A program made the translations under genes and the position numbers. Shown piece by piece: positions 2,390 through 56,697 of a DNA stretch of 64,000 bases (its first letter is position 1; each line of letters starts with the position of its first letter). Under the pieces are notes generated by a model. The model was not told where the DNA came from and searched no databases. It was given only the letters and a program-made list of their open reading frames with translations. Where the stretch lies: the NCBI RefSeq assembly GCF_054482595.1, contig NZ_CM137008.1; one strand, written 5' to 3'.

Positions 2390-2842
2390 CTACCAGCGTT
2401 TTGCCGCCTGCTGATCGCTCTCCCGAGCTTCGACCCAGCGGTCGCCCTCCGGCGTGGCTTCGCGCTTCCAGAACGGTGCGCGGGTTTTGAGATAATCCAT
2501 AATAAACTGCCCGGCTTCAAACGCACTGCTGCGATGCGCACTGGTGACACCGACAAAAACGATTTCATCGCCCGGCCATAATTCCCCGATGCGGTGAATC
2601 ACCGTGACGCGCCCCAGCGGCCAGCGGTTACGCGCTTCATCGACAATTTCTGCCAGTGCTTTTTCAGTCATCCCCGGATAGTGTTCGAGGGTTAATGCTT
2701 TGACGCTGTCGCCCAGGTTATGGTTGCGCACCTTACCGGTAAAGGTGACTACCGCACCGTCTTCGTCACGCTCCGCCAGCCACGGGTACTCTTCTCCTAC
2801 GCTGAACGGCTGCGGACCAACAACAATTTTGGTTTCTGCCAT
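2390..2842 (-). CDS. moaE: Molybdopterin synthase catalytic subunit MoaE (150 aa)
   Basis: 150-aa ORF immediately after moaD; size and operon position. Confidence 0.9.
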   Translation of the reverse strand: MAETKIVVGPQPFSVGEEYPWLAERDEDGAVVTFTGKVRNHNLGDSVKALTLEHYPGMTEKALAEIVDEARNRWPLGRVTVIHRIGELWPGDEIVFVGVTSAHRSSAFEAGQFIMDYLKTRAPFWKREATPEGDRWVEARESDQQAAKRW

Positions 2843-2843
2843 C

Positions 2844-3089
2844 TTAACCTCCGGTTACCGGCGGGAAGAAAGCTACTTCGTCGCCGTCAGTCAGCGGATG
2901 GTCAAAACTCACCAGCGTCTGGTTGACGGCAGCCAGTAATTTGCCATCTTCCAGCGCCAGCGCCCAGCGATCGCTCTGCGCAGCCAGGTGCTGGCGTAAC
3001 GCTTCAACGGTTGGGAAATCCGCAGCCACTTCGGTTGCATCTGTTCCTACCAACTCGCGCACCTGGGCGAAAAAAAGAACTTTAATCAT
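2844..3089 (-). CDS. moaD: Molybdopterin synthase sulfur-carrier subunit MoaD (81 aa)
   Basis: ORF trimmed to [12 protein letters not shown]...; 81 aa ending in Gly-Gly (PVTGG) typical of MoaD/ThiS carriers. Confidence 0.9.
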
Positions 3090-3567
3090 CCGCTTCCACC
3101 TTAAAGTCACCCGACTTGCCGCCGCTCTTCGCCAGCAAACGTACCGGACCAATCACCATATCTTTTTGCACCGCTTTGCACATGTCATAAATGGTCAGCG
3201 CCGCCACGGAGGCCGCGGTTAACGCTTCCATTTCGACACCGGTTTTCCCGGTCAGGCGGCATAAGGTTTCTATACGCACCCGATTGTGCTCCGGCTCGGC
3301 CTGTAAATTGACTTCAACTTTGCTGAGCATCAGCGGATGACACAGCGGGATCAGATCCCAGGTGCGTTTTGCCGCCTGAATACCGGCAATACGCGCAGTG
3401 GCAAATACGTCGCCTTTGTGGTGGCGACCATCAATAATCATCGCCAGCGTCTCGCTGCGCATGGTGACAAAGGCTTCCGCCCGCGCTTCACGCACGGTTT
3501 CCGCTTTGGCGGAGACATCCACCATGTGCGCTTCGCCAGCGGCGTTGATATGGGTCAGTTGCGACAT
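3082..3567 (-). CDS. moaC: Cyclic pyranopterin monophosphate synthase MoaC (161 aa)
   Basis: 161-aa ORF in moaABCDE order; overlaps moaD start by 8 nt. Confidence 0.9.
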
Positions 3568-3569
3568 AC

Positions 3570-4082
3570 TTATTTCTTCAAATGTGGATGGAAATTACAC
3601 GGACGCGTACGGGCATCCAGCTGCGGCGCGATGATATTTTCCCATGCGGTACGGCACGCTTTGGTCGAACCCGGCATGGCGAAAATCAGCGTTTTGTTAG
3701 CGACGCCCGCTACCGCACGAGATTGCAACGTGGAAGTGCCAATCTCTTCAAACGACAACATACGGAACACTTCACCAAAACCTTCAACTTCACGGTCGAA
3801 CAACGGCAGCAATGCTTCGGGAGCCTGATCACCTTCCGTCAGGCCAGTCCCCCCCGTAATCAACACCACTTGTACATCGTCGCTGGCGATCCACGCAGAT
3901 ACCTGAGCGCGAATAGCGTAGCGGTTTTCTTTCACAATGGCTTTATCGACAACGTGATGGCCCGCTTCTTGCGCCGAATCGCGCAAATAGTGACCGGAGG
4001 TATCGTCTTCTTCACCGCGACGATTAGAAACCGTAAGAATAGCAATACGGGTCGGGATAAATTCAGTGCTTACCTGACTCAT
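3570..4082 (-). CDS. moaB: Molybdenum cofactor biosynthesis protein MoaB (170 aa)
   Basis: 170-aa ORF, MogA/MoaB-like translation, between moaA and moaC. Confidence 0.9.
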
Positions 4083-4103
4083 CTGATCTCTCCTTTTGAC
4101 GTT

Positions 4104-5093
4104 TTAGCCGCCAATGTACGATAAGTTTTGCGTAATACCGGTGTTGTTTTGATGCAGGAAATGGGTCTGTTTCTTCTCCCGCAGCGCCGCTGAAATACGC
4201 GCTTCCAGCACCTGTTGCTGGGTATCGTCTTCCAGCAGATCGCGCAGGTTAACGCCGCCTTCACCAAACAGGCAGAGATGGAGTTTACCAATGGAGGAAA
4301 CGCGCAGACGGTTGCAAGTGGCGCAGAAGTCTTTTTCATACGGCATGATAAGGCCAATCTCTCCGGCGTAATCCGGATGACAAAAGACTTGCGCGGGACC
4401 GTCGCTGCGTTGACGTAATTGGTGGATCCAGCCGCGACGCAGTAGCTCGTCACGCAGAACCTGACCAGAGATGTGATGCTTACGGAAGAGCTCGCTGCCC
4501 TCGCCCGTTTCCATCAGTTCGATGAAACGCAGCTGGATAGGGCGATGCTGGATCCAGTTCAGAAAGGTGTCGAGCTGGTGATGATTAACATCACGCATCA
4601 GCACGGTATTGACTTTGACCTTCTCAAAACCGGCCTCAAATGCAGCATCAATCCCTGCCATGACCTGGTTGAATTTATCCTGCCCGGTAATAGCGTGAAA
4701 CTGGCGGGCGTCCAGACTATCAACGCTGACGTTGATGCCAGTAAGTCCAGCATCGCGCCAGTTCGCCACATCGCGTTCCAGACGGTAACCATTGGTGGTG
4801 ACCGCTATCTGGCGAATAGCGTCGTTTTCTCGCACAGCGGCGATGATATCGGTAAAGTCGCGGCGTAAAGACGGCTCACCGCCTGTCAGGCGCACTTTTT
4901 CGGTGCCCAGACTGGCGAAGGCGCGCGTAACCCGGCGAATTTCATCGACGGTCAGAAAGCCTTTATTGGTGACGCCGCTCGGTTTGTAGCCATCCGGCAG
5001 GCAGTAGGTGCAACGAAAGTTACACACATCGGTAATCGACAGGCGCAAGTAGTAAAACTTACGCGCAAATGCATCAGTCAGTTGTGAAGCCAT
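4104..5093 (-). CDS. moaA: GTP 3',8-cyclase MoaA, radical SAM (329 aa)
   Basis: ORF trimmed to MASQLTDAF...; CNFRCTYC radical-SAM cysteine motif near N-terminus; 329 aa. Confidence 0.92.
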
Positions 5094-5240
5094 GTACACC
5101 TTTCCAGATACGGGAGGCGAAGTCATTTCTTCCTTCGCCCTGGTGGCAATCTTTACGAGCATTGTCACGGCCAAAGCACCATATCAGTTGACCCAGGTGC
5201 AGAGGCTAGAGTGTTTAGTGGTTAAGCCGATACTAGCGTG
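5094..5240 (-). ncRNA. moaA 5' leader, expected location of the Moco riboswitch
   Basis: Long untranslated leader upstream of moaA; the riboswitch is placed by established knowledge of the E. coli moaA leader, its conserved fold was not verified here. Confidence 0.35.
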
Positions 5241-5429
5241 TAAATGAGATTTTTACCATCCACACTTTCGCTATGTAATCATGTATATAGCGTCATGATC
5301 GTGCTATTTCGCTACAGAATAAGGGAAAATGGCGGTTTTACTTTGATATACATCATCAGGGAGGCATAGCGTGCATCGTCCTTTAGAGGTAGAAGAAAAT
5401 AGTTTGTATCCTCAATATTGGCAGGTTAA

Positions 5430-6398
<969 letters not shown>

Positions 6399-14793: not shown

Positions 14794-14808
14794 TTAGTAT
14801 AAAAAAGT
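14794..14808. other. attR core (P-O-B' junction, tailspike side)
   Basis: ttagtataaaaaagt = reverse complement of lambda core GCTTTTTTATACTAA with one substitution at the phage-side end; preceded by host cgctcaag, followed by lambda-P-arm-like sequence. Confidence 0.85.
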
Positions 14809-15340: not shown

Positions 15341-17266
15341 TTATTTAGCTTGAACCGTTAATATTTTCCCTCCAGAATATTCTGTAAGATTACTTATTTC
15401 ATTAGCCAAAAGCGCTTTGAACATATTTCGGTCCTGCCCGAAAACAACGCCAGAAAAGAAAGTCCCAAGGTTGCGGTAGCCGCCTACGGTCGGCATACGG
15501 ATAAACAGGTAAGACGTACCCTCGTACGTGCCGGTAAACCAAGCATCATAATCTGTGAGAGATTGGTTATCACAGTGAGCAGCTCTAACTAATTTTGCGC
15601 GGGTAGAGATATTGCTGCCTACTGTATTAAGGTCATACGCACCCGATATAGGATTAAGATCTTCCCCGCTGCGTAATGTATAAATAGTCCCAATGCACCC
15701 TCGTTTCCCATACTGACCACCAACGATACGATAATACGGCCCAGCAGACTGGTCTGGATTCGGCAACGCCATATCCCGACACATAGTGGTACTGAACGTT
15801 GGTATGGTTGCCAGCCCACCAAGATTACCTAATGTAGCGAAAGTTGCAGTTTTCGTGTCGTATGAATTCCTTTGAGGCCACGACGTTTCAAACTTATTGC
15901 TGTACACGATTTCTAACTTAGCACCGTTAGTTAAACGGGCCATCGCGCCATTGAAAGTAGTGGTCGAGCTGGCAATTAGTTGCTTAATACTTACTTTAGC
16001 ATAACCAGATAGGTCAAACATGTAGCTACCTGCAGCCTGCGTTTGATCGTACAGATGTATATTATCTATCTGTAAGTTAGCCCCGGTGCCCTTAATAATC
16101 GTACCGCTGTTCTGACGTGAAGGTTGTTCACAACCTAAAGACGAAATGCTGTACGAGCCTGCGTTAAAAATATACGGAATCCCAGCGCAATCGTCAGCGG
16201 CTAATGGACCAATTTCACAATATGAGCCCGTCAACTCAAAGGCACAGTAGTTTGTTTTAAACGCGTTACATTGGGATACTACGTAGCTTGCCCCCCCATG
16301 TATATGAATACCACCATATATCCCGGTAGCGTCGGAACCTTGGACAACGATTTCGCGGATGGAAACACCAACGAAGGTATTGCCGCCAAAATACATCCCC
16401 CATTTTTGCGCAAGGATAAACAGATCACTAAATTCCTGGTATACGGCGGTATTGGGAGTGTAATACCCGTAACTATCCGTTGTATCGTCCAGGATGCGTA
16501 GTCCACGGACAACATTACCACGTTTACCCTTGTTATAGAAAACAGCGTTAATATCCTGAGTTCCTACCGCCGTTTTGCGAATAATGGATGCACGACCCTC
16601 CCCGACGAATCGGCTACCATTTGGTTGATAGTATTTCTCATTGTAAACATCTTCCAAATCGTAAAGAAGAATAGAGTCCGATATCTCATATTCGCCAGCG
16701 GGCACAAATATAGTTTTTCCCAGTTGCGCGGATACAAGCGATGCTCGATTAAAAGAGAGCGTCCAATCTGGATCTGAATCCAGTTTAAAGTCCAGTACAG
16801 AAATAGTTTCAGAGTTTTTCTGGTGTTGCGTTCGATTTACGGCCCCGTTAAATGGTTGCCGAACAGCTATCTTCGCATCATTAACAATAGTAGGACCATA
16901 GTCTTGCGCCAACTCTGACCTTAGTTGATCAGGGTCATACTTAAGCACATTCGGAAAATAGAACTGCTGTGCACCATATGCATCATAAACAGCCATAGAA
17001 TGGCCTTGCACAGTTACGAACTTGGCAATCTGTCCGTTATATACAGGATACCCGCCAGCGTTAATGATGATTGGCTGTGCAACAGGAACGTGAGAACCGT
17101 CTTCATTCTCTACATAAACCTGAATCTGGTTTTCAGGATTTACCGGGTCAGTGTCAATTTTTCCGATATAAATTTTGCCATTGGCAACCGCTTTAAAAGA
17201 ACGCGCCATAGTGAAGAGTTGCGAAGGCATACTCACTACAACATTGGCATTTATTGAATCTGTCAT
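15341..17266 (-). CDS. P22-type tailspike (641 aa): conserved N-terminal head-binding domain, divergent receptor-binding body
   Basis: N-terminus [62 protein letters not shown]... closely parallels the P22 gp9 head-binding domain (recalled); remainder is beta-helix-like with different sequence. Confidence 0.85.
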
Positions 17267-38013: not shown

Positions 38014-38300
38014 GACTTAATCTTCCCCTCCTTCAGCAGTATCGCCTGCGTCCTGATTACGCCTTCGAGGTGGTAAAGTCTGGCGTCTTTGTTGTCGAGA
38101 TTATGGGTGCGTCGGTCGATCTCCGCGTGGCAGTCACTACAAGCCCATGCGCCGATCAGGTCGTCAGGCTTCATTCCCGTTCCGCAAATTCCAGCCATCC
38201 GGTAATGTGCCAGAACTGTAGTTTCAGGGTTGCCATTGCATACGCCGTAAATACGTACCTGACATTCTCTTCCGCGCGCTTCTTTGCGTAGGTTAGCCAT
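38010..38300 (-). CDS. DUF1364-family protein (YbcO-like, 96 aa)
   Basis: Cys-rich 96-aa protein immediately upstream of rusA, as in DLP12-type nin regions. Confidence 0.6.
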   Translation of the reverse strand: MANLRKEARGRECQVRIYGVCNGNPETTVLAHYRMAGICGTGMKPDDLIGAWACSDCHAEIDRRTHNLDNKDARLYHLEGVIRTQAILLKEGKIKS

Positions 38301-39022
38301 TAAGCAGCCTCCCCTGTTACTTTCAGCATTCCGTTATCGAGCAGCTTTCTGGTCAGCCACTGTTGACCACGCCCGGTGATTTTTGTGGTAAACGATATCT
38401 GTATTCCGTGATTTGTGTTGACCGCTGTTTCTTTCACTGTGAAATAGCCGCGATCCATATATTCCTGCATTGGCACATTGCGCCGGGAACCTGAAGCAAT
38501 AAGGATTTTGTGATCGCGCATCCATGCAAACAGTTTGTTTGGACCAATACCAACAACCTTTGCATAGTTTCCAATCAAAATTCCGCTGGCCTCGCCAACT
38601 CGATCGGCAAACTCAACTTTAGGTGCGGCAATTGCGAGCTGGTTTTCCAGTTGCATTTTCTGCTCAGCAAGATCAGCAGCAAGGCGCAACGCTTCCGGTA
38701 ACGTTTTGGGGATATTAACCGCAGTTTCTTCAAGCTCTCGCCAACGGTCAACAAGACGAGCGGTGAATTCCGGCGACAACTGGGCTACAACGACAATACT
38801 GTCTCGCTTTCCTTGTTCGCCTTCGAAGACGTAAGCCTCGACACTACGGCGCAGCCCTAAGTTATTGATTTTTTCGAAAACCTGCAATGCAGGAAGTTGA
38901 ATAACTCCAGATTTAGCCAGGCGCTCTATTGATATTTTTACGTTATCTGGACGACTTCCCACCAACTCAGCGATTTCAATGCTTGTCATTTTGATGGCAT
39001 TGCCATTTATTAACTCATTCAT
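38300..39022 (-). CDS. Rha-family phage regulatory protein with KilA-C-like C-terminal domain (240 aa)
   Basis: N-terminus MTSIEIAELVGSRPDNVKISIERL (Rha/ORF6N-like) and C-terminal KilA-C-like region. Confidence 0.65.
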   Translation of the reverse strand: MNELINGNAIKMTSIEIAELVGSRPDNVKISIERLAKSGVIQLPALQVFEKINNLGLRRSVEAYVFEGEQGKRDSIVVVAQLSPEFTARLVDRWRELEETAVNIPKTLPEALRLAADLAEQKMQLENQLAIAAPKVEFADRVGEASGILIGNYAKVVGIGPNKLFAWMRDHKILIASGSRRNVPMQEYMDRGYFTVKETAVNTNHGIQISFTTKITGRGQQWLTRKLLDNGMLKVTGEAA

Positions 39023-39191: not shown

Positions 39192-39568
39192 TATTGGATT
39201 CTCTGCATCATGAGAAAGACAATCATGGCGGCGCGGAGAGGTCTGGTATCAAATATTGGGCTTACACCTTTTGCATCCACACACCATTCAGTTAACTGGT
39301 CTAAGATAGAAATCCGGTATTTCTCAATAATCGGCCATGAGGCGCTCGGATCATTGCAGTAGTCAGGTAAAGGGTTTAATGGCTCAAGACTTGTATCAGA
39401 ATTTCCGTAATACCATTTATTGGTGTTATTCCCTGATGTTTCCGGTTTACATGCCCAAAGGCCTTTAAAAATTATGTCTCCTACCATTCTGTTAATTTCA
39501 AAATCACTTAACTGTGAATAATCCATTGTCATTTCCTCGCACGATGTATTAGCCACCGGATATCCCAC
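39191..39568 (-). CDS. Hypothetical nin-region protein (up to 125 aa; start uncertain)
   Basis: ORF between ninC-like and ninF; no recognised motif. Confidence 0.45.
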
Positions 39569-39701
39569 AGGTGAGCCGTGTAGTTGAATGTTTTTACGTC
39601 AGATTCTTTTGGGATTGGCTTGGGTTTATTTCTGGAGCGTTTCGTTGGAAGGTATTTGCAGTTTTCACAGATTATGTCGGTGATGCTTCGTCGCTGTCGT
39701 C

Positions 39702-40547
39702 TCATGCCGCATCCTCAAAATTAAATCCAAGCTGACATGAAAATGCTTCACATGATTCAGAACACGAACCTGAATCATACTGTCGCATTGATGTCATTCT
39801 TGAGGCTAACTCATCTCTTGATATATCACTAAACAAGGCAATCAGTGATTTAAGTGTATTATTCCCTCGATACATAACCGGTTCCTTTCCTGTTTTTATT
39901 TCTGTATCAAGGATGTTGATAAATGCATCTGCAAGTTCTGGCTCATCCATGGCTGCCAGCGCAACCTTTTGCATACTTTTTTTTATACAGAAAACACAAT
40001 TACCAAGATGCTCCTGTATGCCAAGATCAAACTTCTGCCCACTCCACCAATCAAGCACATCCTGTTTTTCAAAATCGCTTATATCAGCCAGGTACCGAAA
40101 ACCATTAGCCCTTTTAAGCCTGTTTGGTTCATCTGTGCGAATGCCAAGCCATGTGATGTAATTTCCTTTCCCAAACTTTTCCTGACAATATTTGGTGAAT
40201 GGAACAGACTTCATTCTGTCGGTACAGAACGCACCGCCGATATATGGATGTCCGTATTTATTTAACATCCTTTTCCACGGTATAAGATCTGGACCAATAT
40301 CATTGACACCTATCTCTTCATAACTACTGGCCTTCCCCATTTCTGGATTAGGTATTACACGAAGGCAATGTAAGTCTATTTTCCAGTTACTGACGATATT
40401 TCGGATGAACTCATATGTTTTAGGGTGCTCTGCCCCTGTATCCATGAAAACGTAATGCACGTCTTCACCTGACTGTCGCTTTTGCTCCATTAGCCAGAGC
40501 AAATATGCTGACGTCCTGCCACCTGAGAAACTAACGACATTTACCAT
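39702..40547 (-). CDS. PAPS reductase-like protein (NinC/Orf290 family, 281 aa)
   Basis: ORF trimmed to [22 protein letters not shown] (SGGxxS PP-loop-type motif). Confidence 0.7.
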
Positions 40548-41071
40548 GCAGCCCTCCTGACGCCCTGCCCGATCGCCATCAATGCCGCTTTGGATACGGT
40601 AGTAAACATCCGTCGAGGACTGATGAACGGTCGCCAAATCAGCAGCATGGAGCCTTTGCTGTTTCCCTTCTTCTCCAGCCCTGTCGATGGTTCGATAAAA
40701 TTAATCCGTCCATCAGTGATGATGCGAACTTCGTCAATACTCTCCAGAGCCTTGCTGAACCATCCGACAGACATATCCTCTGGCACAAGCATCACTACCG
40801 TCTGTCGCTGTTGTATGCACTGCTCAGCGGCTTTTTCCACCCACGGCCTGATATTGCTGTACGGTGGGTTATTCCAGATTGCACCGTGGCTTATCCACTC
40901 AGAATTTAGCGCGTCGTCGGCCTCAGTTAACCAGTGAGCGCACAGAGCATTTTTGTCGCTCGCTGCCGAATCCAGCCAGAATCCAAACTCAATATCCAGT
41001 GCATCAAAAAGCCAAAGCGGCGTTTGCCAGCAGTCCTTGTCGTGTGCTGGCGTATTTGATTTGATAGTCAT
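40541..41071 (-). CDS. Phage DNA N6-adenine methyltransferase (Dam family, 176 aa)
   Basis: ORF trimmed to MTIKSNTPAHDKDCWQTPLWLFDAL...; catalytic NPPY motif; start overlaps ninB stop (ATGA). Confidence 0.75.
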   Translation of the reverse strand: MTIKSNTPAHDKDCWQTPLWLFDALDIEFGFWLDSAASDKNALCAHWLTEADDALNSEWISHGAIWNNPPYSNIRPWVEKAAEQCIQQRQTVVMLVPEDMSVGWFSKALESIDEVRIITDGRINFIEPSTGLEKKGNSKGSMLLIWRPFISPRRMFTTVSKAALMAIGQGVRRAAW

Positions 41072-41508
41072 GCAGCCCGATCTCCCCATCTCGCTTTCCA
41101 CTCCAGAGCCAGTCTCGCTTCGTCTGACCACTTAACGCCACGCTCTGTACCGAATGCCTGTATAAGCTCTAATAGCTCCGCAAATTCGCCTACACGCATC
41201 CTGCTGGTTGACTGGCCTATTACCACAAAGCCATTCCCGGCAAGGTTAGGAACAACATCCTGCTGCTTTAATGCTGCGGTAAACACACACTTCCAGCTTT
41301 CTGCATCCAGCCAGCGACCATGCCATTCAACCTGACGAGAGACGTCACCAAGGCAAGCCCAAAGCTTTCGATTCTGGTCTAAGCTGCGGTTGCGTTCCTG
41401 AATGGTTACTACGATTGGTTTGGTTGGGTCTGGAAGAATTTGCTGTACCGCGTGAATAGCGTTTTGCTGATGTGCTGGAGATCGAATTTCAAAGGTTAGT
41501 TTTTTCAT
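41068..41508 (-). CDS. ninB: NinB (Orf-family recombination mediator, 146 aa)
   Basis: MKKLTFEIRSPAHQQNAIHAVQQILPDPTKPIVVTIQERNRSLDQNRKLWACLGDVSRQVEWHGRW... matches lambda NinB as recalled. Confidence 0.88.
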   Translation of the reverse strand: MKKLTFEIRSPAHQQNAIHAVQQILPDPTKPIVVTIQERNRSLDQNRKLWACLGDVSRQVEWHGRWLDAESWKCVFTAALKQQDVVPNLAGNGFVVIGQSTSRMRVGEFAELLELIQAFGTERGVKWSDEARLALEWKARWGDRAA

Positions 41509-41584
41509 GACTTCCCTCTCCCCCAAATAAAAAGGCCTGCGATTACCAGCAGGCCTGTTATTAGCTCAGTGATGTAGATGGTCA

Positions 41585-43021
41585 TCAGAATCCTCCTTTC
41601 TTCTTGGACTGCGGTTCCTCGCGTTCACGTCGGCGCATTTCAGCAGACTGTTGGTCTGTGTCATAAATAGCGCCATTTGCCTGAATGCAATACACCGTGC
41701 CGGTATTGCCATGACGATTGAGACGAAGGATTAGTTCGGTTTCACCAGGCGGAACACTGTCATCAAAAGCACCTTCACGATGGATCCCCACCCAATAATC
41801 GCAATCCTGTTCAATCTGCCCTGTATCGCGCGAGTCACTTGGTAATGGGCGTTTATTGGTTCGGCTTTCCAGTGCGCGGTTAAGCTGCGTCAGAAGCACA
41901 ACAACGCAATCAAGCTCTTTGGCAAGGTTCTTCAGTCCTTTGGTGATCATGCCGTAAGCAAGGTCGTTGCGATCGGCCTTCTCAGCGGTCATTAGTGTCA
42001 GGTAATCGACCAGAATCATGCCAACACATCCTTTTTCTCGCTTGATTCGACGGCTTTCGCTGACGATTTGAGCCAGAGATAATCCCGGCGTGTCGTCGAT
42101 GTAAAGCAGGTCGATTTCACTCAAGCGATTGGCTGTTTCGATCGCCCTGTTGAAGTCACCATCGTAATCACCCTGATAGCCGTCATCAGCGTCATTTGTC
42201 GCCGGAAGGTAAAAAATATTCGGGTTAACACCTGACTTCTGTCCCACCAGTTTTTCCAGTATCTGGTCACCTGGCATTTCAAGGCTGAACATCAGAGCGG
42301 GCTTTTTCTCATGCACTGCGCAGTTGATTGCCATCTGGCTGTATAGCGTCGTTTTCCCCATCTTAGGGCGAGCGCCAATGACAAACAGAGAGCCTTTCAC
42401 CAGACCTTTCGGTGACAGCATCCTGTCCAGCGATGGGATCCCTGTGCTCATTCCCCGTTGTTCGCCTGATGGGTCAAATCGCTTCTCAAGGTCGCTAACC
42501 CAGTCTTCCATGACCTCACCAAATGAACGAAGGCCGCGACGCGATCCGGTTTTTGCATGGTCTGTCAGTTGCGTGAAAATCGACTGAATAGCTTCGTACT
42601 TCTGCGTTGCAGTCATTCCGTTGCGGGAATAGAGCAATTCCGTCGCTTCAGTCATGCGGTTGATGGCGTAGCGTTCCATTGCGGTTTCACGAACCTGCAT
42701 TGCATAGGCAACGATGTTTGCGGCGCTTGGCGTGTTCTTTGCGATCTCAGCGATATAAGCAAAACCGCCAACAGACGCCGTTAACGATTTACGCTCCAGT
42801 TCATCGAAAAGCGTCAGGCCATCTACTGGCTTTTGCTCCCGGTGCATTCTGGTTATTTCTTCGAAAAGGATTTTGTGTGGCCGGCTGTAAAATGAGTCAG
42901 GCTTCAGCATCGCCAGAACTTTCTGGACGCGCTCACTGCTGTCATCATCCAGAAGCAATCCACCAATCACCGCCTGCTCTGCCTCGATGCTATGGGGCGG
43001 CGCATAAAAATTATCGGTCAT
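41585..43021 (-). CDS. Replicative DNA helicase, DnaB-type (P22 gene 12-like, 478 aa)
   Basis: ORF trimmed to MTDNFYAPPHSIEAEQAVIGGLLLD (DnaB N-terminal signature); Walker A GARPKMGKT. Confidence 0.88.
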   Translation of the reverse strand: MTDNFYAPPHSIEAEQAVIGGLLLDDDSSERVQKVLAMLKPDSFYSRPHKILFEEITRMHREQKPVDGLTLFDELERKSLTASVGGFAYIAEIAKNTPSAANIVAYAMQVRETAMERYAINRMTEATELLYSRNGMTATQKYEAIQSIFTQLTDHAKTGSRRGLRSFGEVMEDWVSDLEKRFDPSGEQRGMSTGIPSLDRMLSPKGLVKGSLFVIGARPKMGKTTLYSQMAINCAVHEKKPALMFSLEMPGDQILEKLVGQKSGVNPNIFYLPATNDADDGYQGDYDGDFNRAIETANRLSEIDLLYIDDTPGLSLAQIVSESRRIKREKGCVGMILVDYLTLMTAEKADRNDLAYGMITKGLKNLAKELDCVVVLLTQLNRALESRTNKRPLPSDSRDTGQIEQDCDYWVGIHREGAFDDSVPPGETELILRLNRHGNTGTVYCIQANGAIYDTDQQSAEMRRREREEPQSKKKGGF

Positions 43022-44717: not shown

Positions 44718-44807
44718 TACTTATAACCAAAGATAACTCAAGTTATAAAAATTAGCAATAACCTTTGTTATTTTACTTTGGATAACCGTAGTTATAGATT
44801 TGTGGGT
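44718..44807. promoter_or_regulatory. OR operators with divergent pR/pRM promoters
   Basis: Repeated imperfect palindromes with ATAAC...GTTAT half-sites (ataactcaagttat, aataacctttgttatt, ataaccgtagttat). Confidence 0.6.
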
Positions 44808-45515
44808 ATGAAAACATTCGCAGAAAGACTAAATGCAGCCATGAGCTCAGCAGGGGTATCACAATCACAGCTTGCTGACATGGTTGGAATATCTCAGCCA
44901 GCCATACAGAAGATGTCGTCCGGTAAAACAAACGGATCTCGCAAGATGGTTGAATTAGCCAATGCTTTAAAAGTGCGTCCTGAATGGCTTAGTTCTGGTA
45001 TTGGTGAAATGAGGGATGGTGCACATGAAGAACCATCCAATGTCCGTGAGTCATCTTTAAAAGCTGTGGTATGGGAAGACATTAAAAGAAACGATGACGA
45101 GTTTGTTGCGTTGCCTCTTCTTAACGTTTCGCTTTCAGCTGGAAGCGGTAGCTGCGAGCTAGAGGAATCATCGGAGTTCTCTTTGGTTTTCAGAAAGCAC
45201 TATCTGAAAAAGATGGGAGTATCTGAAAGATCAGCCAAGCTAGTTAGGGTTGTAGGGCAAAGCATGGAACCAACGCTTCACGATGGCGATGTTGTTGGTG
45301 TTAACACGCAAGATACCACAATCAGAGATGGTAAAACCTACGCTATTTGCCAGTCTGATTTGTTACGAGTAAAAACATTAATCGCCACCCCTACATCGGT
45401 GATAATCAGATCAATAAATCGCGAAGAGTACCCGGATGAAGTAATGGATAGAGATGAATTTCATAAAACCGTAAGGATTATTGGCAGAGTATTCTGGTCG
45501 TCTCATAGTTGGTAA
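44808..45515 (+). CDS. cI: CI-type prophage repressor, HTH + S24 LexA-like autopeptidase domain (235 aa)
   Basis: ORF 44778..45515 trimmed to MKTFAERLNAAMSSAGVSQSQLADMVGISQPAIQKM; C-terminal GQSMEPTL with Ser and later Lys of S24 peptidases. Confidence 0.85.
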   Translation: MKTFAERLNAAMSSAGVSQSQLADMVGISQPAIQKMSSGKTNGSRKMVELANALKVRPEWLSSGIGEMRDGAHEEPSNVRESSLKAVVWEDIKRNDDEFVALPLLNVSLSAGSGSCELEESSEFSLVFRKHYLKKMGVSERSAKLVRVVGQSMEPTLHDGDVVGVNTQDTTIRDGKTYAICQSDLLRVKTLIATPTSVIIRSINREEYPDEVMDRDEFHKTVRIIGRVFWSSHSW

Positions 45516-45757
45516 CCGATAATCAGAAGAAGACTTACGGAAGTGCGGAGGGATAATGGAATTTCTGATAGTTTTTGTTGTTGTTTTGGTCATCATTCTT
45601 TTTGTTTTGCTAAGCATTAGCAAAAAGCTATCTCAAATGATTGAACATAGCTCTAATCGCGCAAAATAGACTGGCCCCCTGAATCTCCAGACAACCAATA
45701 TCACTTATTTAAGTGATAGTCTTAATACTAGTTTTTAGACTAGTCATTGGAGAGCAG

Positions 45758-46123
45758 ATGATTGATGTCTTAGGACCGGAGAAACGCAGACGGCGTACTA
45801 CACAGGAAAAGATCGCTATTGTTCAGCAGAGTTTTGAACCGGGAATGACAGTCTCCCTTGTTGCCCGGCAACACGGTGTGGCAGCCAGCCAGTTATTTCT
45901 CTGGCGCAAGCAATACCAGGAGGGAAGTCTTACTGCTGTGGCCGCAGGAGAACAGGTCGTTCCTGCCTCTGAACTTGCTGCCGCCATGAAGCAGATTAAA
46001 GAACTCCAGCGCCTGCTCGGCAAAAAAACGATGGAAAATGAACTCCTTAAAGAAGCCGTTGAATACGGGCGTGCAAAAAAGTGGATAGCGCACGCGCCCT
46101 TATTGCCCGGGGATGGGGAGTAA
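45758..46123 (+). CDS. insC: IS2 transposase OrfA (InsC, 121 aa)
   Basis: [58 protein letters not shown]3-family HTH OrfA. Confidence 0.9.
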
Positions 46124-46986
46124 GCTTAGTCAGCCGTTGTCTCCGGGTGTCGCGTGCGCAGTTGCACGTCATTCTCAGACGAACCGATGACTGGAAAGAT
46201 GGTCGCCGCAGCCGTCACTCAGATGATACGGATGTGCTTCTCCGTATACACCATGTTATCGGAGAGCTGCCCACATATGGTTATCGTCGGGTATGGGCGC
46301 TGCTTCGCAGACAGGCCGAACTTGATGGTATGCCTGCGATCAATGCCAAACGTATTTACCGGATCATGCGCCAGAATGCGCTGTTGCTTGAGCGAAAACC
46401 CGCTGTACCGCCATCGAAACGGGCACATACCGGCAGAGTGGCTGTGAAAGAAAGTAATCAGCGATGGTGCTCTGACGGGTTCGAGTTCCGCTGTGATAAC
46501 GGAGAAAAACTGCGAGTCACGTTCGCGCTGGACTGCTGTGACCGTGAGGCACTGCACTGGGCGGTCACTACGGGCGGCTTCAACAGTGAAACAGTACAGG
46601 ACGTCATGCTGGGAGCGGTGGAACGCCGTTTCGGCAACGAGCTTCCGGCGTCTCCAGTAGAGTGGCTGACGGATAATGGTTCATGCTACCGGGCTAATGA
46701 AACACGGCAGTTTGCCCGGATGTTGGGGCTTGAACCGAAGAACACGGCGGTGCGGAGTCCGGAGAGTAACGGCATAGCAGAGAGCTTCGTGAAAACGATA
46801 AAGCGTGACTACATCAGTGTCATGCCCAAACCAGACGGGTTAACGGCAGCAAAGAACCTTGCAGAGGCATTCGAGCATTATAACGAATGGCATCCGCATA
46901 GTGCACTGGGTTATCGCTCGCCACGGGAATATCTACGGCAGCAAGCCAGTAATGGGTTAAGTGATAACAGGTGTCTGGAAATATAG
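46081..46986 (+). CDS. insD: IS2 transposase OrfB (InsD, 301 aa; expressed as InsCD by frameshift)
   Basis: DDE integrase-type translation overlapping orfA 3' end in a different frame. Confidence 0.9.
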
Positions 46987-55342: not shown

Positions 55343-55561
55343 ATGTACTTGACACTTCAGGAGTGGAACGCACGCCAGCGACGCCCAAGAAGCCTTGAAA
55401 CAGTTCGTCGATGGGTACGCGAGTGCAGGATATTCCCTCCTCCGGTTAAGGATGGAAGAGAGTATCTGTTCCACGAATCAGCGGTAAAGGTTGACTTAAA
55501 TCGACCAGTAACAGGTAGCCTTTTGAAGAGGATCAGAAATGGGAAGAAGGCGAAGTCATGA
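55343..55561 (+). CDS. xis: Excisionase Xis, lambda-type (72 aa)
   Basis: MYLTLQEWNARQRRPRSLETVRRWVRECRIFPPPVKDGREYLFHESAVKVDLNRP matches lambda Xis as recalled. Confidence 0.93.
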   Translation: MYLTLQEWNARQRRPRSLETVRRWVRECRIFPPPVKDGREYLFHESAVKVDLNRPVTGSLLKRIRNGKKAKS

Positions 55562-56609
55562 GCGCCGGGATTTACCCCCTAACCTTTATATAAGAAACAA
55601 TGGATATTACTGCTACAGGGACCCAAGGACGGGTAAAGAGTTTGGATTAGGCAGAGACAGGCGAATCGCAATCACTGAAGCCATACAGGCCAACATTGAG
55701 TTATTTTCAGGACACAAACACAAGCCTCTGACAGCGAGAATCAACAGTGATAATTCCGTTACGTTACATTCATGGCTTGATCGCTACGAAAAAATCCTGG
55801 CCAGCAGAGGAATCAAGCAGAAGACACTCATAAATTACATGAGCAAAATTAAAGCAATACGGGGGGGGCTGCCTGATGCTCCACTTGAAGACATCACCAC
55901 AAAAGAAATTGCGGCAATGCTCAATGGATACATAGACGAGGGCAAGGCGGCGTCAGCCAAGTTAATCAGATCAACACTGAGCGATGCATTCCGAGAGGCA
56001 ATAGCTGAAGGCCATATAACAACAAACCCTGTCGCTGCCACTCGCGCAGCAAAATCAGAGGTAAGGAGATCAAGACTTACGGCTGACGAATACCTGAAAA
56101 TTTATCAAGCAGCAGAATCATCACCATGTTGGCTCAGACTTGCAATGGAACTGGCTGTTGTTACCGGGCAACGAGTTGGTGATTTATGCGAAATGAAGTG
56201 GTCTGATATCGTAGATGGATATCTTTATGTCGAGCAAAGCAAAACAGGCGTAAAAATTGCCATCCCAACAACATTGCATGTTGATGCTCTCGGGATATCA
56301 ATGAAGGAAACACTCGATAAATGCAAAGAGATTCTTGGCGGAGAAACCATAATTGCATCTACTCGTCGTGAACCGCTTTCATCCGGCACAGTATCAAGGT
56401 ATTTTATGCGCGCACGAAAAGCATCAGGTCTTTCCTTCGAAGGGGATCCGCCTACCTTTCACGAGTTGCGCAGTTTGTCTGCAAGACTCTATGAGAAGCA
56501 GATAAGCGATAAGTTTGCTCAACATCTTCTCGGGCATAAGTCGGACACCATGGCATCACAGTATCGTGATGACAGAGGCAGGGAGTGGGACAAAATTGAA
56601 ATCAAATAA
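55539..56609 (+). CDS. int: Integrase Int, lambda-type tyrosine recombinase (356 aa)
   Basis: MGRRRSHERRDLPPNLYIRNNGYYCYRDPRTGKEFGLGRDRRIAITEAIQ... matches lambda Int as recalled; overlaps xis end. Confidence 0.95.
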   Translation: MGRRRSHERRDLPPNLYIRNNGYYCYRDPRTGKEFGLGRDRRIAITEAIQANIELFSGHKHKPLTARINSDNSVTLHSWLDRYEKILASRGIKQKTLINYMSKIKAIRGGLPDAPLEDITTKEIAAMLNGYIDEGKAASAKLIRSTLSDAFREAIAEGHITTNPVAATRAAKSEVRRSRLTADEYLKIYQAAESSPCWLRLAMELAVVTGQRVGDLCEMKWSDIVDGYLYVEQSKTGVKIAIPTTLHVDALGISMKETLDKCKEILGGETIIASTRREPLSSGTVSRYFMRARKASGLSFEGDPPTFHELRSLSARLYEKQISDKFAQHLLGHKSDTMASQYRDDRGREWDKIEIK

Positions 56610-56682: not shown

Positions 56683-56697
56683 TTAGTATAAAAAAGC
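56683..56697. other. attL core (B-O-P' junction, int side)
   Basis: ttagtataaaaaagc = reverse complement of GCTTTTTTATACTAA; 56610..56682 matches lambda P' arm as recalled; followed by host aggc... Confidence 0.9.

Follow-up and report, generated by a model that had tools for sequence, protein, structure and literature searches.

An orphan dam gene beside a divergent ninC allele in the nin region of a lambdoid Escherichia coli prophage

The ninB-dam-ninC region and its relatives

In the genome of bacteriophage lambda (NC_001416) ninC (41081-41953) comes immediately after ninB (40644-41084), and the joint carries a single copy of the 11-nt sequence GGGCTGCATGA. In VT2-Sakai and many Stx phages a dam gene of the allele described here lies next to ninB, and that of VT2-Sakai (orf32, NP_050531), which encodes M.EcoVT2Dam, begins directly 3' of ninB at an ATGA joint. 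Both dam and ninC are found in Salmonella phage vB_SosS_Oslo (NC_018279), in the order ninB-dam-ninC-ninD-ninE, and in E. coli ST540 (NZ_CP007391), where ninB-dam-ninC'-ninE-ninX-ninF has been annotated by PGAP, ninC' being the allele described here. The known combinations are ninB-dam-ninE, ninB-ninC', ninB-dam-ninC', ninB-dam-ninC (lambda type) and ninB-ninC (lambda).

The window, i.e. the whole stretch of 64,000 nucleotides analysed here (contig NZ_CM137008.1), contains a lambdoid prophage of 41.9 kb whose virion genes are P22-like and which occupies the lambda att site of the E. coli chromosome; its placement is based on the host flanks, the att cores and a lambda-type integrase. An IS3-family element lies just beyond cI. 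The preliminary description of this DNA had reported ninB, a gene for a 176-amino-acid methylase and a gene for a 281-amino-acid PAPS-reductase-like protein, joined by overlaps of 4 and 7 nt, and these coordinates and identities were confirmed (Table 1). It gave no strand; all three genes are on the minus strand. The longest ninB ORF begins at a TTG codon at 41526, and for ST540, too, PGAP gives a ninB CDS of 441 nt. No internal stop codons were found in the ninB, dam or ninC-like ORFs.

Table 1 Features of the nin region, in window coordinates
Feature	Position	Strand	Description
Terminator-like hairpin and T-run	41533-41556	minus	between the DnaB-like helicase gene and ninB
ninB (ORF)	41068-41508	minus	recombination mediator, 146 aa from ATG; Pfam PF05772 NinB, E=2.3e-54
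Boundary repeat, upstream copy	41068-41078	minus	GGGCTGCATGA, 11 nt; last ninB codons (...R-A-A-stop) and ATG of the next gene
dam	40541-41071	minus	orphan phage N6-adenine DNA methyltransferase, 176 aa, M.EcoVT2Dam allele
Boundary repeat, downstream copy	40544-40554	minus	GGGCTGCATGG; 10/11 match to GGGCTGCATGA
ninC-like	39702-40547	minus	PP-loop / PAPS-reductase-superfamily protein, 281 aa
ninE	39529-39705	minus	58 aa; PF05322, E=6e-43; start overlaps the ninC stop (ATGA)

The ST540 locus has the same gene order as the window and 98.7% DNA identity with it. Phage Oslo shares the ninB-dam-ninC order and a Dam that is 98.9% identical, whereas its ninC is the lambda-type allele (57% identical). 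VT2-Sakai Dam has the same motifs as the window Dam, but is followed by ninE rather than ninC and lacks the additional C-terminal Trp of the window protein. Lambda has no dam gene 5' of ninC, as the preliminary description had stated, and NC_001416 agrees. The arrangement is not the standard lambda layout, although it is a standard lambdoid variant elsewhere. No phage record matched by megablast covered 80% or more of the 2.1-kb region, but the suggestion that the arrangement is absent from known phages was overturned by searches at the protein level and in E. coli genomes, which recovered Oslo, ST540 and others.

Among 5,426 complete E. coli genomes this dam allele adjoins ninB in 1,539-1,565 (about 29%), with up to five copies per genome, and full-length matches to this ninC allele are present in 27 (0.5%). 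The order ninB-dam-ninC-ninE is annotated by PGAP in 15 complete E. coli genomes, and in three IMG/VR loci (L006, L007 and L009) this ninC allele lies directly 3' of a PF05869 dam gene. Layouts of the ninB-dam-ninC type are not new; they belong to the ordinary variation of lambdoid nin regions and have been annotated before.

The ninB TGA stop lies on the dam ATG (ATGA, a 4-nt overlap), and dam and ninC, which are in different frames, overlap by 7 nt; the Shine-Dalgarno-like sequences GGGGAG and AGGAGG are found 5' of dam and ninC, respectively. Coupled translation had been suggested earlier from these overlaps, which are real but not distinctive. From ninB to Q all ten joints overlap, by 1-8 nt, as do the joints of the lambda nin region, so that overlaps of 4 and 7 nt represent ordinary packing of the nin operon, and a special link among ninB, dam and ninC was rejected. 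Translation of dam and ninC would be chained in the manner expected for all nin genes.

The repeat GGGCTGCATGA occurs at both ends of dam (Table 1), and in ST540 it is present in full at the dam/ninC joint. In ST540, Oslo and VT2-Sakai the 3' joint of dam ends in unmutated GCATGA, and the dam/ninC joint of ST540 and of Oslo is the ordinary 4-nt ATGA, in contrast to the 7 nt of the window. Here a single A-to-G substitution has changed the usual GCATGA, which contains the TGA stop, to GCATGGTAA, and the longer overlap results from the loss of this stop; Dam gains one residue, Trp176, and residue 2 of NinC is changed from Ile to Val. The dam gene may be regarded as a self-contained cassette at the joint between ninB and the next gene, bracketed by GGGCTGCATGA, and the repeat recreates the stop/start overlap for any gene following the cassette. 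The cassette associates freely with one or the other ninC allele, and also occurs where ninC is absent.

The hairpin 5' of ninB has a stem of eight pairs, six of them G-C (AGGCCTGC...GCAGGCCT), followed by TTTTATTT, and stands at the position of lambda tR2, to which we presume, from its position and from what is established for lambda, that it is equivalent. Apart from this hairpin, no internal promoters or terminators beyond those expected by chance were found, promoter-like sites being no commoner than in shuffled sequence. Both dam and the ninC-like gene would lie 3' of the tR2-like terminator within the pR delayed-early operon, and by analogy with lambda they would for this reason remain unexpressed in the lysogen and be transcribed once N antitermination has set in.

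The Dam methyltransferase

The product of dam matches PF05869 along its full length (profile positions 1-167 of 169, E=1.9e-64, 216.9 bits with a cut-off of 28.1), with the NPPY motif intact, when compared with Pfam as the preliminary description had proposed. The NCBIfam equivalog TIGR01712 is also matched, with 264.2 bits (cut-off 97.05). Motif IV, NPPYS, is at about residues 67-72, and the N-terminal motifs D13-x-W15-x-T17-P18 (DxWxTP) and D34 (LD..A) are present, as are all the family-invariant residues (D13, T17, P18, D34, N68, P70, Y71, S72, R122 and F125). In an alignment of 10 sequences, extending down to 27% identity, these motifs were invariant or nearly so. No solved structure in the Dam family was detectable by sequence search. 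An AlphaFold model (pLDDT 87.6) was nearest to a cap-specific adenosine N6-methyltransferase, TrmM, CamA and HsdM, with TM scores of 0.4-0.59, and predicts the fold of a SAM-dependent N6-adenine methyltransferase.

The protein is 100% identical to Dam of phage mEp043 over 175 amino acids and identical to M.EcoVT2Dam at 173 of 175 positions, both changes being Ile/Val. M.EcoVT2Dam is reported as GATC-specific in PMC6602927, which cites Radlinska and Bujnicki 2001, and from the 99% identity with this enzyme the phage Dam is predicted to form m6A at GATC. Hia5-type non-specific adenine methylases are Dam/DpnM-like and do not belong to PF05869 (PMC3299994); as a guide to specificity they were set aside as uninformative for this enzyme.

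The preliminary description had named degenerate motifs as a sign of an inactive methylase. Degeneracy was rejected, in view of the 173/175 identity to M.EcoVT2Dam and the retention of every invariant residue. That the enzyme is an inactive relic is very improbable: the ORF is intact, the family-invariant residues including NPPYS are present, the protein is 99% identical to an enzyme reported as active, and more than 1,500 genomes retain the allele with a DNA identity of 95-99%. Nothing specific speaks for a relic, the sole oddity being the one-codon C-terminal extension, Trp176, formed by the change of TGA to TGG.

No restriction endonuclease gene adjoins dam, which is flanked by ninB on one side and by ninC, ninE, ninX and ninF on the other, and the methyltransferase is in this respect an orphan. 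The phage enzyme would methylate GATC adenines on fast-replicating phage DNA, supplementing a limiting host Dam, and packaged genomes, then fully methylated, would be shielded in the next host both against GATC restriction of the methylation-sensitive kind and against MutH. An anti-restriction role, as proposed in the preliminary description, is plausible, but is narrower than was implied, the site predicted from the 99% identity being that of the host Dam. GATC is already methylated by the Dam of the E. coli host, and protection from E. coli restriction therefore adds little.

This prior modification of the target site is also one reason to consider that the phage Dam serves development rather than anti-restriction, for example through MutH avoidance in recombination-dependent replication, GATC-sensitive promoters or packaging, or lysogen stability. 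The dam gene adjoins the recombination genes ninB, rusA and ybcO, and the prophage has 98 GATC sites where 177 are expected, a depletion not shared by the host flanks (76 observed, 78 expected), suggesting that GATC status matters to the phage. On the other hand, dam is dispensable, being missing from many close relatives, and the conventional interpretation of orphan phage Dam enzymes is one of anti-restriction (review PMC12707154). We consider a developmental role rather unlikely. As a finding, the methylase is of little consequence in itself: it is an orphan phage Dam of the textbook type, carried at this position by thousands of sequenced lambdoid prophages.

The NinC-like protein

The NinC-like protein has 56% identity with lambda NinC (Nin290, NP_040635) over residues 1-277 and is a full-length homologue of it. 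It matches phrog_33262 with E=1e-111, the lambda NinC family being represented by PHROG 33262/424, and PF01507 with 35 bits (cut-off 22.5). At the DNA level the first approximately 100 nt of the gene are 95-97% identical to lambda ninC, and identity thereafter is 30-70%. Judged from these comparisons, the gene is a divergent allele of lambda ninC, with which it shares the PP-loop, the invariant cysteines and the place in the nin operon. We know of no function assigned to lambda NinC, for decades.

The PP-loop, SGGRTS, is at amino acids 8-13, and the family-invariant cysteines are Cys108, Cys184-x-x-Cys187, Cys262 and Cys266. Both features were invariant across 36 sequences, extending down to 29% identity, and the protein, a PP-loop enzyme with these five cysteines, probably carries an Fe-S cluster.

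A CysH-type PAPS/APS reductase of sulfate assimilation was rejected as an identity for this protein. No NCBIfam CysH equivalog was matched, the hits being confined to hypothetical PRK13795-type models, with weak scores and at the N-terminus; the C-terminal catalytic ECGLH motif (EC[GA][LI]H) is absent, and identity with solved APS/PAPS reductases (CysH; PDB 2goy, 6vpu and 1sur) is only 14-20%. The protein shares the fold of the PAPS/APS-reductase superfamily, and the name 'PAPS reductase' should not be applied to it. In a sequence search for NinC structures the only matches were weak and N-terminal; they comprised PAPS reductases and the chain 21fy_C, named PptA. Searches of the literature found no paper on PptA and none on NinC as a PAPS reductase, the term 'NinC' appearing, among the papers listed, only in unrelated chemistry and psychology work.

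A DNA phosphorothioation sulfurtransferase of the DndC or SspD type was also considered, and the gene context does not match that of such an enzyme. No dndA/iscS, dndB, dndD, dndE or sspA-C partners adjoin the gene, the neighbours of which are nin genes only; the rest of the prophage was Pfam-scanned in part. None of the chains among the listed structure-search matches was described as DndC or SspD.

Association of NinC-like proteins with DNA methyltransferases

The most probable reading of the locus (approximately 0.8) is that a familiar orphan Dam cassette and a divergent ninC allele are present as separable modules with lambda-like delayed-early expression. Dam and NinC are separable, each occurring alone. 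Their association in other genomes suggests that a picture of independent modules is incomplete.

Domains of the NinC family are fused to methyltransferases of five Pfam families, PF05869, PF02086, PF01555, PF05063 and PF00145. Fusions of PF01507 with PF05869 are found widely among Salmonella, Klebsiella, Serratia, Yersinia, Pectobacterium and Shewanella prophages. The two domains can stand in either order; P0152 and P0163 have Dam first and NinC second, like the window. Among 79 NinC loci from IMG/VR (48 clusters), 12 are fused to a methyltransferase gene and 10 abut one, three have one within 1.5 kb and none at 1.5-4 kb, and 54 have no methyltransferase within 4 kb.

In Vibrio phage 44E38.1 the protein p0018 combines an N-terminal NinC-like part and a C-terminal PF05869 Dam part in one polypeptide. 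The NinC-like half is 61% identical to the window protein and the PF05869 half about 40% identical to the window Dam, whereas the order is NinC-Dam, compared with two separate genes in the order dam-ninC in the window, and the Dam motif is NCPY instead of NPPY. When p0018 was moved into a sensitive phage together with p0019, the phage infected a Dnd-carrying host (Piel et al., bioRxiv 10.1101/2021.05.05.442762), and promotion of Dnd evasion by a phage PAPS reductase has been restated in a 2026 preprint. This anti-Dnd activity was shown for the two-gene Vibrio cassette; in the window no homologue of p0019 (DUF6475) was found (best tblastn E=1.5).

The dam/ninC-like pair may be a split form of such NinC-methyltransferase fusions. 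It can tentatively be proposed, although we rather doubt it, that Dam and the NinC-like protein function together as a pair of this kind, modifying or masking phage DNA against phosphorothioate-based (Dnd/Ssp-type) or related defences; the methyltransferase might provide DNA binding or target recognition, and the PP-loop/Fe-S domain a second chemistry. The Vibrio fusion and its transfer, the widespread fusions in both orders, those with the other four methyltransferase families and the fused or abutting IMG/VR loci all favour a pair. Against it, dam is far more frequent in E. coli than the full-length ninC allele (29% and 0.5% of genomes), lambda and SE16-type phages have ninC without dam, and VT2-Sakai has dam without ninC. 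The Vibrio transfer moved two genes, and the activity could reside in p0019; the fused Vibrio domain, with NCPY, may be non-catalytic. Five families of methyltransferase with different target bases fit a generic polyvalent anti-restriction protein equally well, and the neighbourhood in the prophage holds no Dnd, Ssp or IscS-type partners.

Alternatively, the adjacency would be purely positional, the 3' joint of ninB being a recombination hotspot for unrelated accessory cassettes and NinC having no relation to DNA modification or defence. Every combination of presence and absence of dam and ninC exists, the 11-nt boundary repeat could mediate gain and loss of the cassette, and other cassettes are present in this region in relatives, E. 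coli S51 having an HNH endonuclease and CFSAN061770 additional hypothetical genes; the 54 of 79 NinC loci without a nearby methyltransferase agree with this. A positional origin would leave unexplained why, in phages of distant hosts, NinC-like domains are fused in frame to methyltransferases of five families, and why 25 methyltransferases lie within 1.5 kb compared with none at 1.5-4 kb. The anti-Dnd cassette of Vibrio phage 44E38.1, moreover, includes a close NinC homologue. We regard a purely positional adjacency as unlikely.

Dam and NinC plausibly both belong to the phage toolkit of DNA modification and anti-defence, and the NinC-like neighbour is a more interesting anti-defence candidate than the methylase. 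A broader proposal, possible but with the odds against it, is that the pair is a split fusion and that the NinC family, including lambda NinC, consists of DNA-modification or anti-defence enzymes which would act on or beside methyltransferase-bound DNA and defeat phosphorothioate-sensing or related defences, Dnd among them. The value of the locus is as a pointer, in that the lambda NinC family is tied to DNA methyltransferases by repeated fusion, and also to a cassette whose anti-Dnd activity has experimental support. The hypothesis of an anti-defence function for NinC is concrete and testable in the best-understood phage system.

Gene identities and operon packing

The window is part of an E. 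coli chromosome: over the initial 9 kb, across uvrB-moa-ybh, several complete genomes match it at 100 % identity. Two copies of the lambda att core (ACTTTTTTATACTAA and GCTTTTTTATACTAA; chance expectation 0.01 matches), found between ybhB/bioA and ybhC, delimit a prophage. Its integrase is of lambda type and its tailspike has a P22-type head-binding domain, which makes the prophage a hybrid of lambda and P22 inserted at the lambda att site. A short distance 3' of the cI-like repressor gene, where lambda has rex, lies an IS3-family element. GATC is depleted in the prophage (14800-56700), with 98 sites (2.3 per kb) against 177 expected from dinucleotides, but not in the host flanks (76 observed vs 78 expected, 3.4 per kb). 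Avoidance of GATC is an old observation in enterobacterial phages; its depletion here is notable in a phage with a putative GATC methylase of its own.

The early-right operon, on the minus strand, starts with cro and cII, followed by genes for an O-like protein and a DnaB-like helicase. Between the helicase gene and ninB stands a hairpin that resembles a terminator; ninB, dam, the ninC-like gene, ninE, ninX and ninF come next, after which the operon ends with an Ant/KilAC-domain antirepressor-like gene, ybcO, rusA, a ninH-like gene and Q. The antirepressor-like gene, a member of the nin operon flanked by ninF and ybcO, overlaps these neighbours by 8 nt and 1 nt.

Features of the prophage and of its nin region (window coordinates)
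Feature	Position	Strand	Remarks
Prophage	14794-56697		41.9 kb
lambda att core	14794-14808		one mismatch
Tailspike gene	15341-17266		P22-type head-binding domain
Ant/KilAC gene	38300-39022	minus
ninC-like	39702-40547	minus	281 aa; PF01507, 35 bits vs 22.5
ninC-like, 5' end	40430-40547	minus
11-nt repeat, second copy	40544-40554	minus	10/11
dam	40541-41071	minus	176 aa; PF05869, E = 1.9e-64, profile 1-167 of 169; TIGR01712 equivalog, 264 bits vs cut-off 97
11-nt repeat, first copy	41068-41078	minus
ninB	41068-41508	minus	146 aa; Pfam NinB, E = 2e-54
Terminator-like hairpin	41556-41533	minus
cI-like repressor gene	44778-45515
IS3-family element	45713-46986
IS3 orfA	45713-46123		HTH_Tnp_1
IS3 orfB	46081-46986		rve
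Integrase gene	55539-56609		lambda-type
lambda att core	56683-56697		exact

The interval 39702-41071 consists of two complete genes, dam and the ninC-like gene, with ninB directly upstream and ninE directly downstream. The preliminary description of ninB, dam and the ninC-like gene as joined by overlaps was confirmed by the ORFs, Pfam matches and joints: the stop of ninB and the start of dam share ATGA, as do the ninC-like gene and ninE, and dam overlaps the ninC-like gene by 7 nt. The 7-nt overlap is trivial in origin, because a single A-to-G change at this joint (GCATGGTAA in the window vs GCATGATAA in relatives) converts the TGA stop to Trp, with TAA as the next codon. The overlaps had also been thought to suggest coupled translation of these three genes, but there is an overlap at each of the ten joints between ninB and Q (4, 7, 4, 4, 1, 8, 1, 4, 4 and 4 nt), and the nin joints of lambda overlap too; overlap is therefore a habit of the whole operon and has no meaning specific to the three genes.

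Intact motifs of Dam and the NinC-like protein

The window methylase corresponds by sequence to an enzyme already known. It shares 173 of 175 residues with the VT2-Sakai phage Dam (NP_050531), both differences being Ile/Val, and has 100 % identity over 175 residues with that of phage mEp043. The VT2-Sakai enzyme, M.EcoVT2Dam, is a GATC-specific orphan methyltransferase according to the passage of PMC6602927 that cites Radlinska and Bujnicki 2001, and from the near-identity the window Dam is predicted to make m6A at GATC. In an alignment with homologues down to 27 % identity, all invariant positions of the family, including NPPYS, are kept. The AlphaFold model (pLDDT 87.6) most closely resembles N6-adenine methyltransferases; no solved structure for the Dam family was detectable by sequence search. 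The near-identity to a known Dam, the invariant residues and the resemblance of the predicted model thus speak against an inactive enzyme with a degenerate motif.

Over its full length, the NinC-like protein has 56 % identity to lambda NinC. Across 36 family members (at least 29 % identity) the PP-loop SGGxTS, Cys108, R137, D139, E140, G182, N183, the CxxC pair Cys184 and Cys187, K190, Cys262 and Cys266 are invariant or nearly so, and we read the protein as a conserved PP-loop enzyme. It probably carries an Fe-S cluster, as predicted from the cysteine pattern and structural neighbours. Identification as CysH was rejected, as the protein has neither an equivalog model match nor the ECGLH motif; solved reductases share only 14-20 % identity with it. 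PDB chain 21fy_C ("PptA", 270 aa) matches the NinC family profile (E = 1e-6) over the PP-loop and an NNCVGC motif, aligned to GNCVFC of the family, and may be the closest solved NinC relative; a literature search for PptA found no describing paper. Many NinC-family proteins match as two stretches split near residue 146-150, indicating a recurrent insertion site there. The corresponding nin region of E. coli S51 (locus H82) contains an annotated HNH endonuclease gene.

Commonness of the arrangement and cassette boundaries

Although real, the feature is ordinary and had been annotated before. Of 5,426 complete E. coli genomes, 1,539-1,565 contain the dam allele (at 95-99 % DNA identity), in up to five copies, and dam adjoins ninB in hundreds of sequenced phages, Stx phages included. 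The exact order ninB-dam-ninC'-ninE, ninC' being the window-type allele, was found in 15 complete genomes, each gene with a PGAP name, and ninC' also lies directly 3' of a PF05869 dam in three IMG/VR contigs (L006, L007 and L009). Salmonella phage vB_SosS_Oslo has ninB-dam-ninC-ninD-ninE with a lambda-type ninC, and the lambda genome, as the preliminary description stated, has no methylase between ninB and ninC. The rare component is ninC', with full-length copies in only 27 of the 5,426 genomes; it also occurs in a set of Salmonella phages that includes SE16 and SF11, there directly after ninB. Since every combination occurs (ninB-ninC, ninB-dam-ninC with either allele, and ninB-dam-ninE), dam and ninC behave as independent mosaic modules, and each is commonly found alone.

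The 11-nt sequence GGGCTGCATGA ends both ninB and dam (...R-A-A-stop plus the ATG of the next gene) and flanks the dam cassette as a direct repeat, so that the coupled joint is regenerated; lambda has a single copy, at the ninB/ninC joint. The repeat looks like a boundary sequence permitting gain or loss of the cassette with the coupled joint preserved. Over its first ~100 nt, ninC' matches lambda ninC at 95-97 % identity, which then falls to 30-70 %, marking a mosaic recombination breakpoint within the coding sequence.

Coupling of NinC-like domains to methyltransferases

In Vibrio phage 44E38.1, the protein p0018 has an N-terminal half with 61 % identity to the window NinC-like protein and a C-terminal half that is a PF05869 Dam domain. 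As Piel et al. (bioRxiv 10.1101/2021.05.05.442762) showed, transfer of p0018 together with p0019 enabled a sensitive phage to infect a Dnd-protected host. The Dnd-evasion point is made again in a 2026 preprint, which also places phage PAPS reductases in anti-defence hotspots. The transferred cassette comprised two genes moved jointly, and the window has no p0019 homologue. In the Dam domain of p0018 (4001-5440 of its locus, L004) the NPPY present in the nine other family members of the alignment is replaced by NCPY, and the catalysis of this domain may be altered or lost.

Fusions of NinC and Dam are widespread in enterobacterial and other prophages and occur in both orders, including the window-like Dam-then-NinC (proteins P0152 and P0163). 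Other partners of NinC-like domains are D12-class Dam (PF02086), N6_N4 methylase (PF01555) and MT-A70 (PF05063). A triple fusion of 1,099 aa (locus L014, IMG/VR UViG_2890773813_000005, ORF 2402-5701), combining a C5 cytosine methylase, a NinC-like PP-loop domain and a D12-class Dam in that order, is by its predicted domains a polyvalent DNA-modification protein. Among 79 IMG/VR loci from the best-scoring 80 (48 clusters at 90 % NinC identity; the loci are not independent), in which methyltransferases were detected with seed sequences of five families only, NinC was fused to a methyltransferase in 12, abutted one in 10 and had one within 1.5 kb in 3; none had one 1.5-4 kb away, and 54 had none in flanks of up to 4 kb on each side. 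Chance placement would not easily give this distribution.

Since a terminator-like (tR2-like) hairpin lies upstream of them in the pR operon, dam and the ninC-like gene would, by established lambda biology, depend on N antitermination for their expression and be confined to the lytic cycle. When phage DNA replicates rapidly, host Dam becomes limiting; the phage Dam would complete GATC methylation of progeny DNA, and full methylation would shield that DNA in the next host against MutH as well as against methylation-sensitive restriction at GATC. The anti-restriction role proposed for the phage Dam is conventional and reasonable. That NinC, with or without Dam, contributes a further protective chemistry is speculative and seems to us less likely than not. 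The only forward value lies in the recurrent coupling of the NinC family to DNA methyltransferases, which suggests a testable role for lambda NinC.
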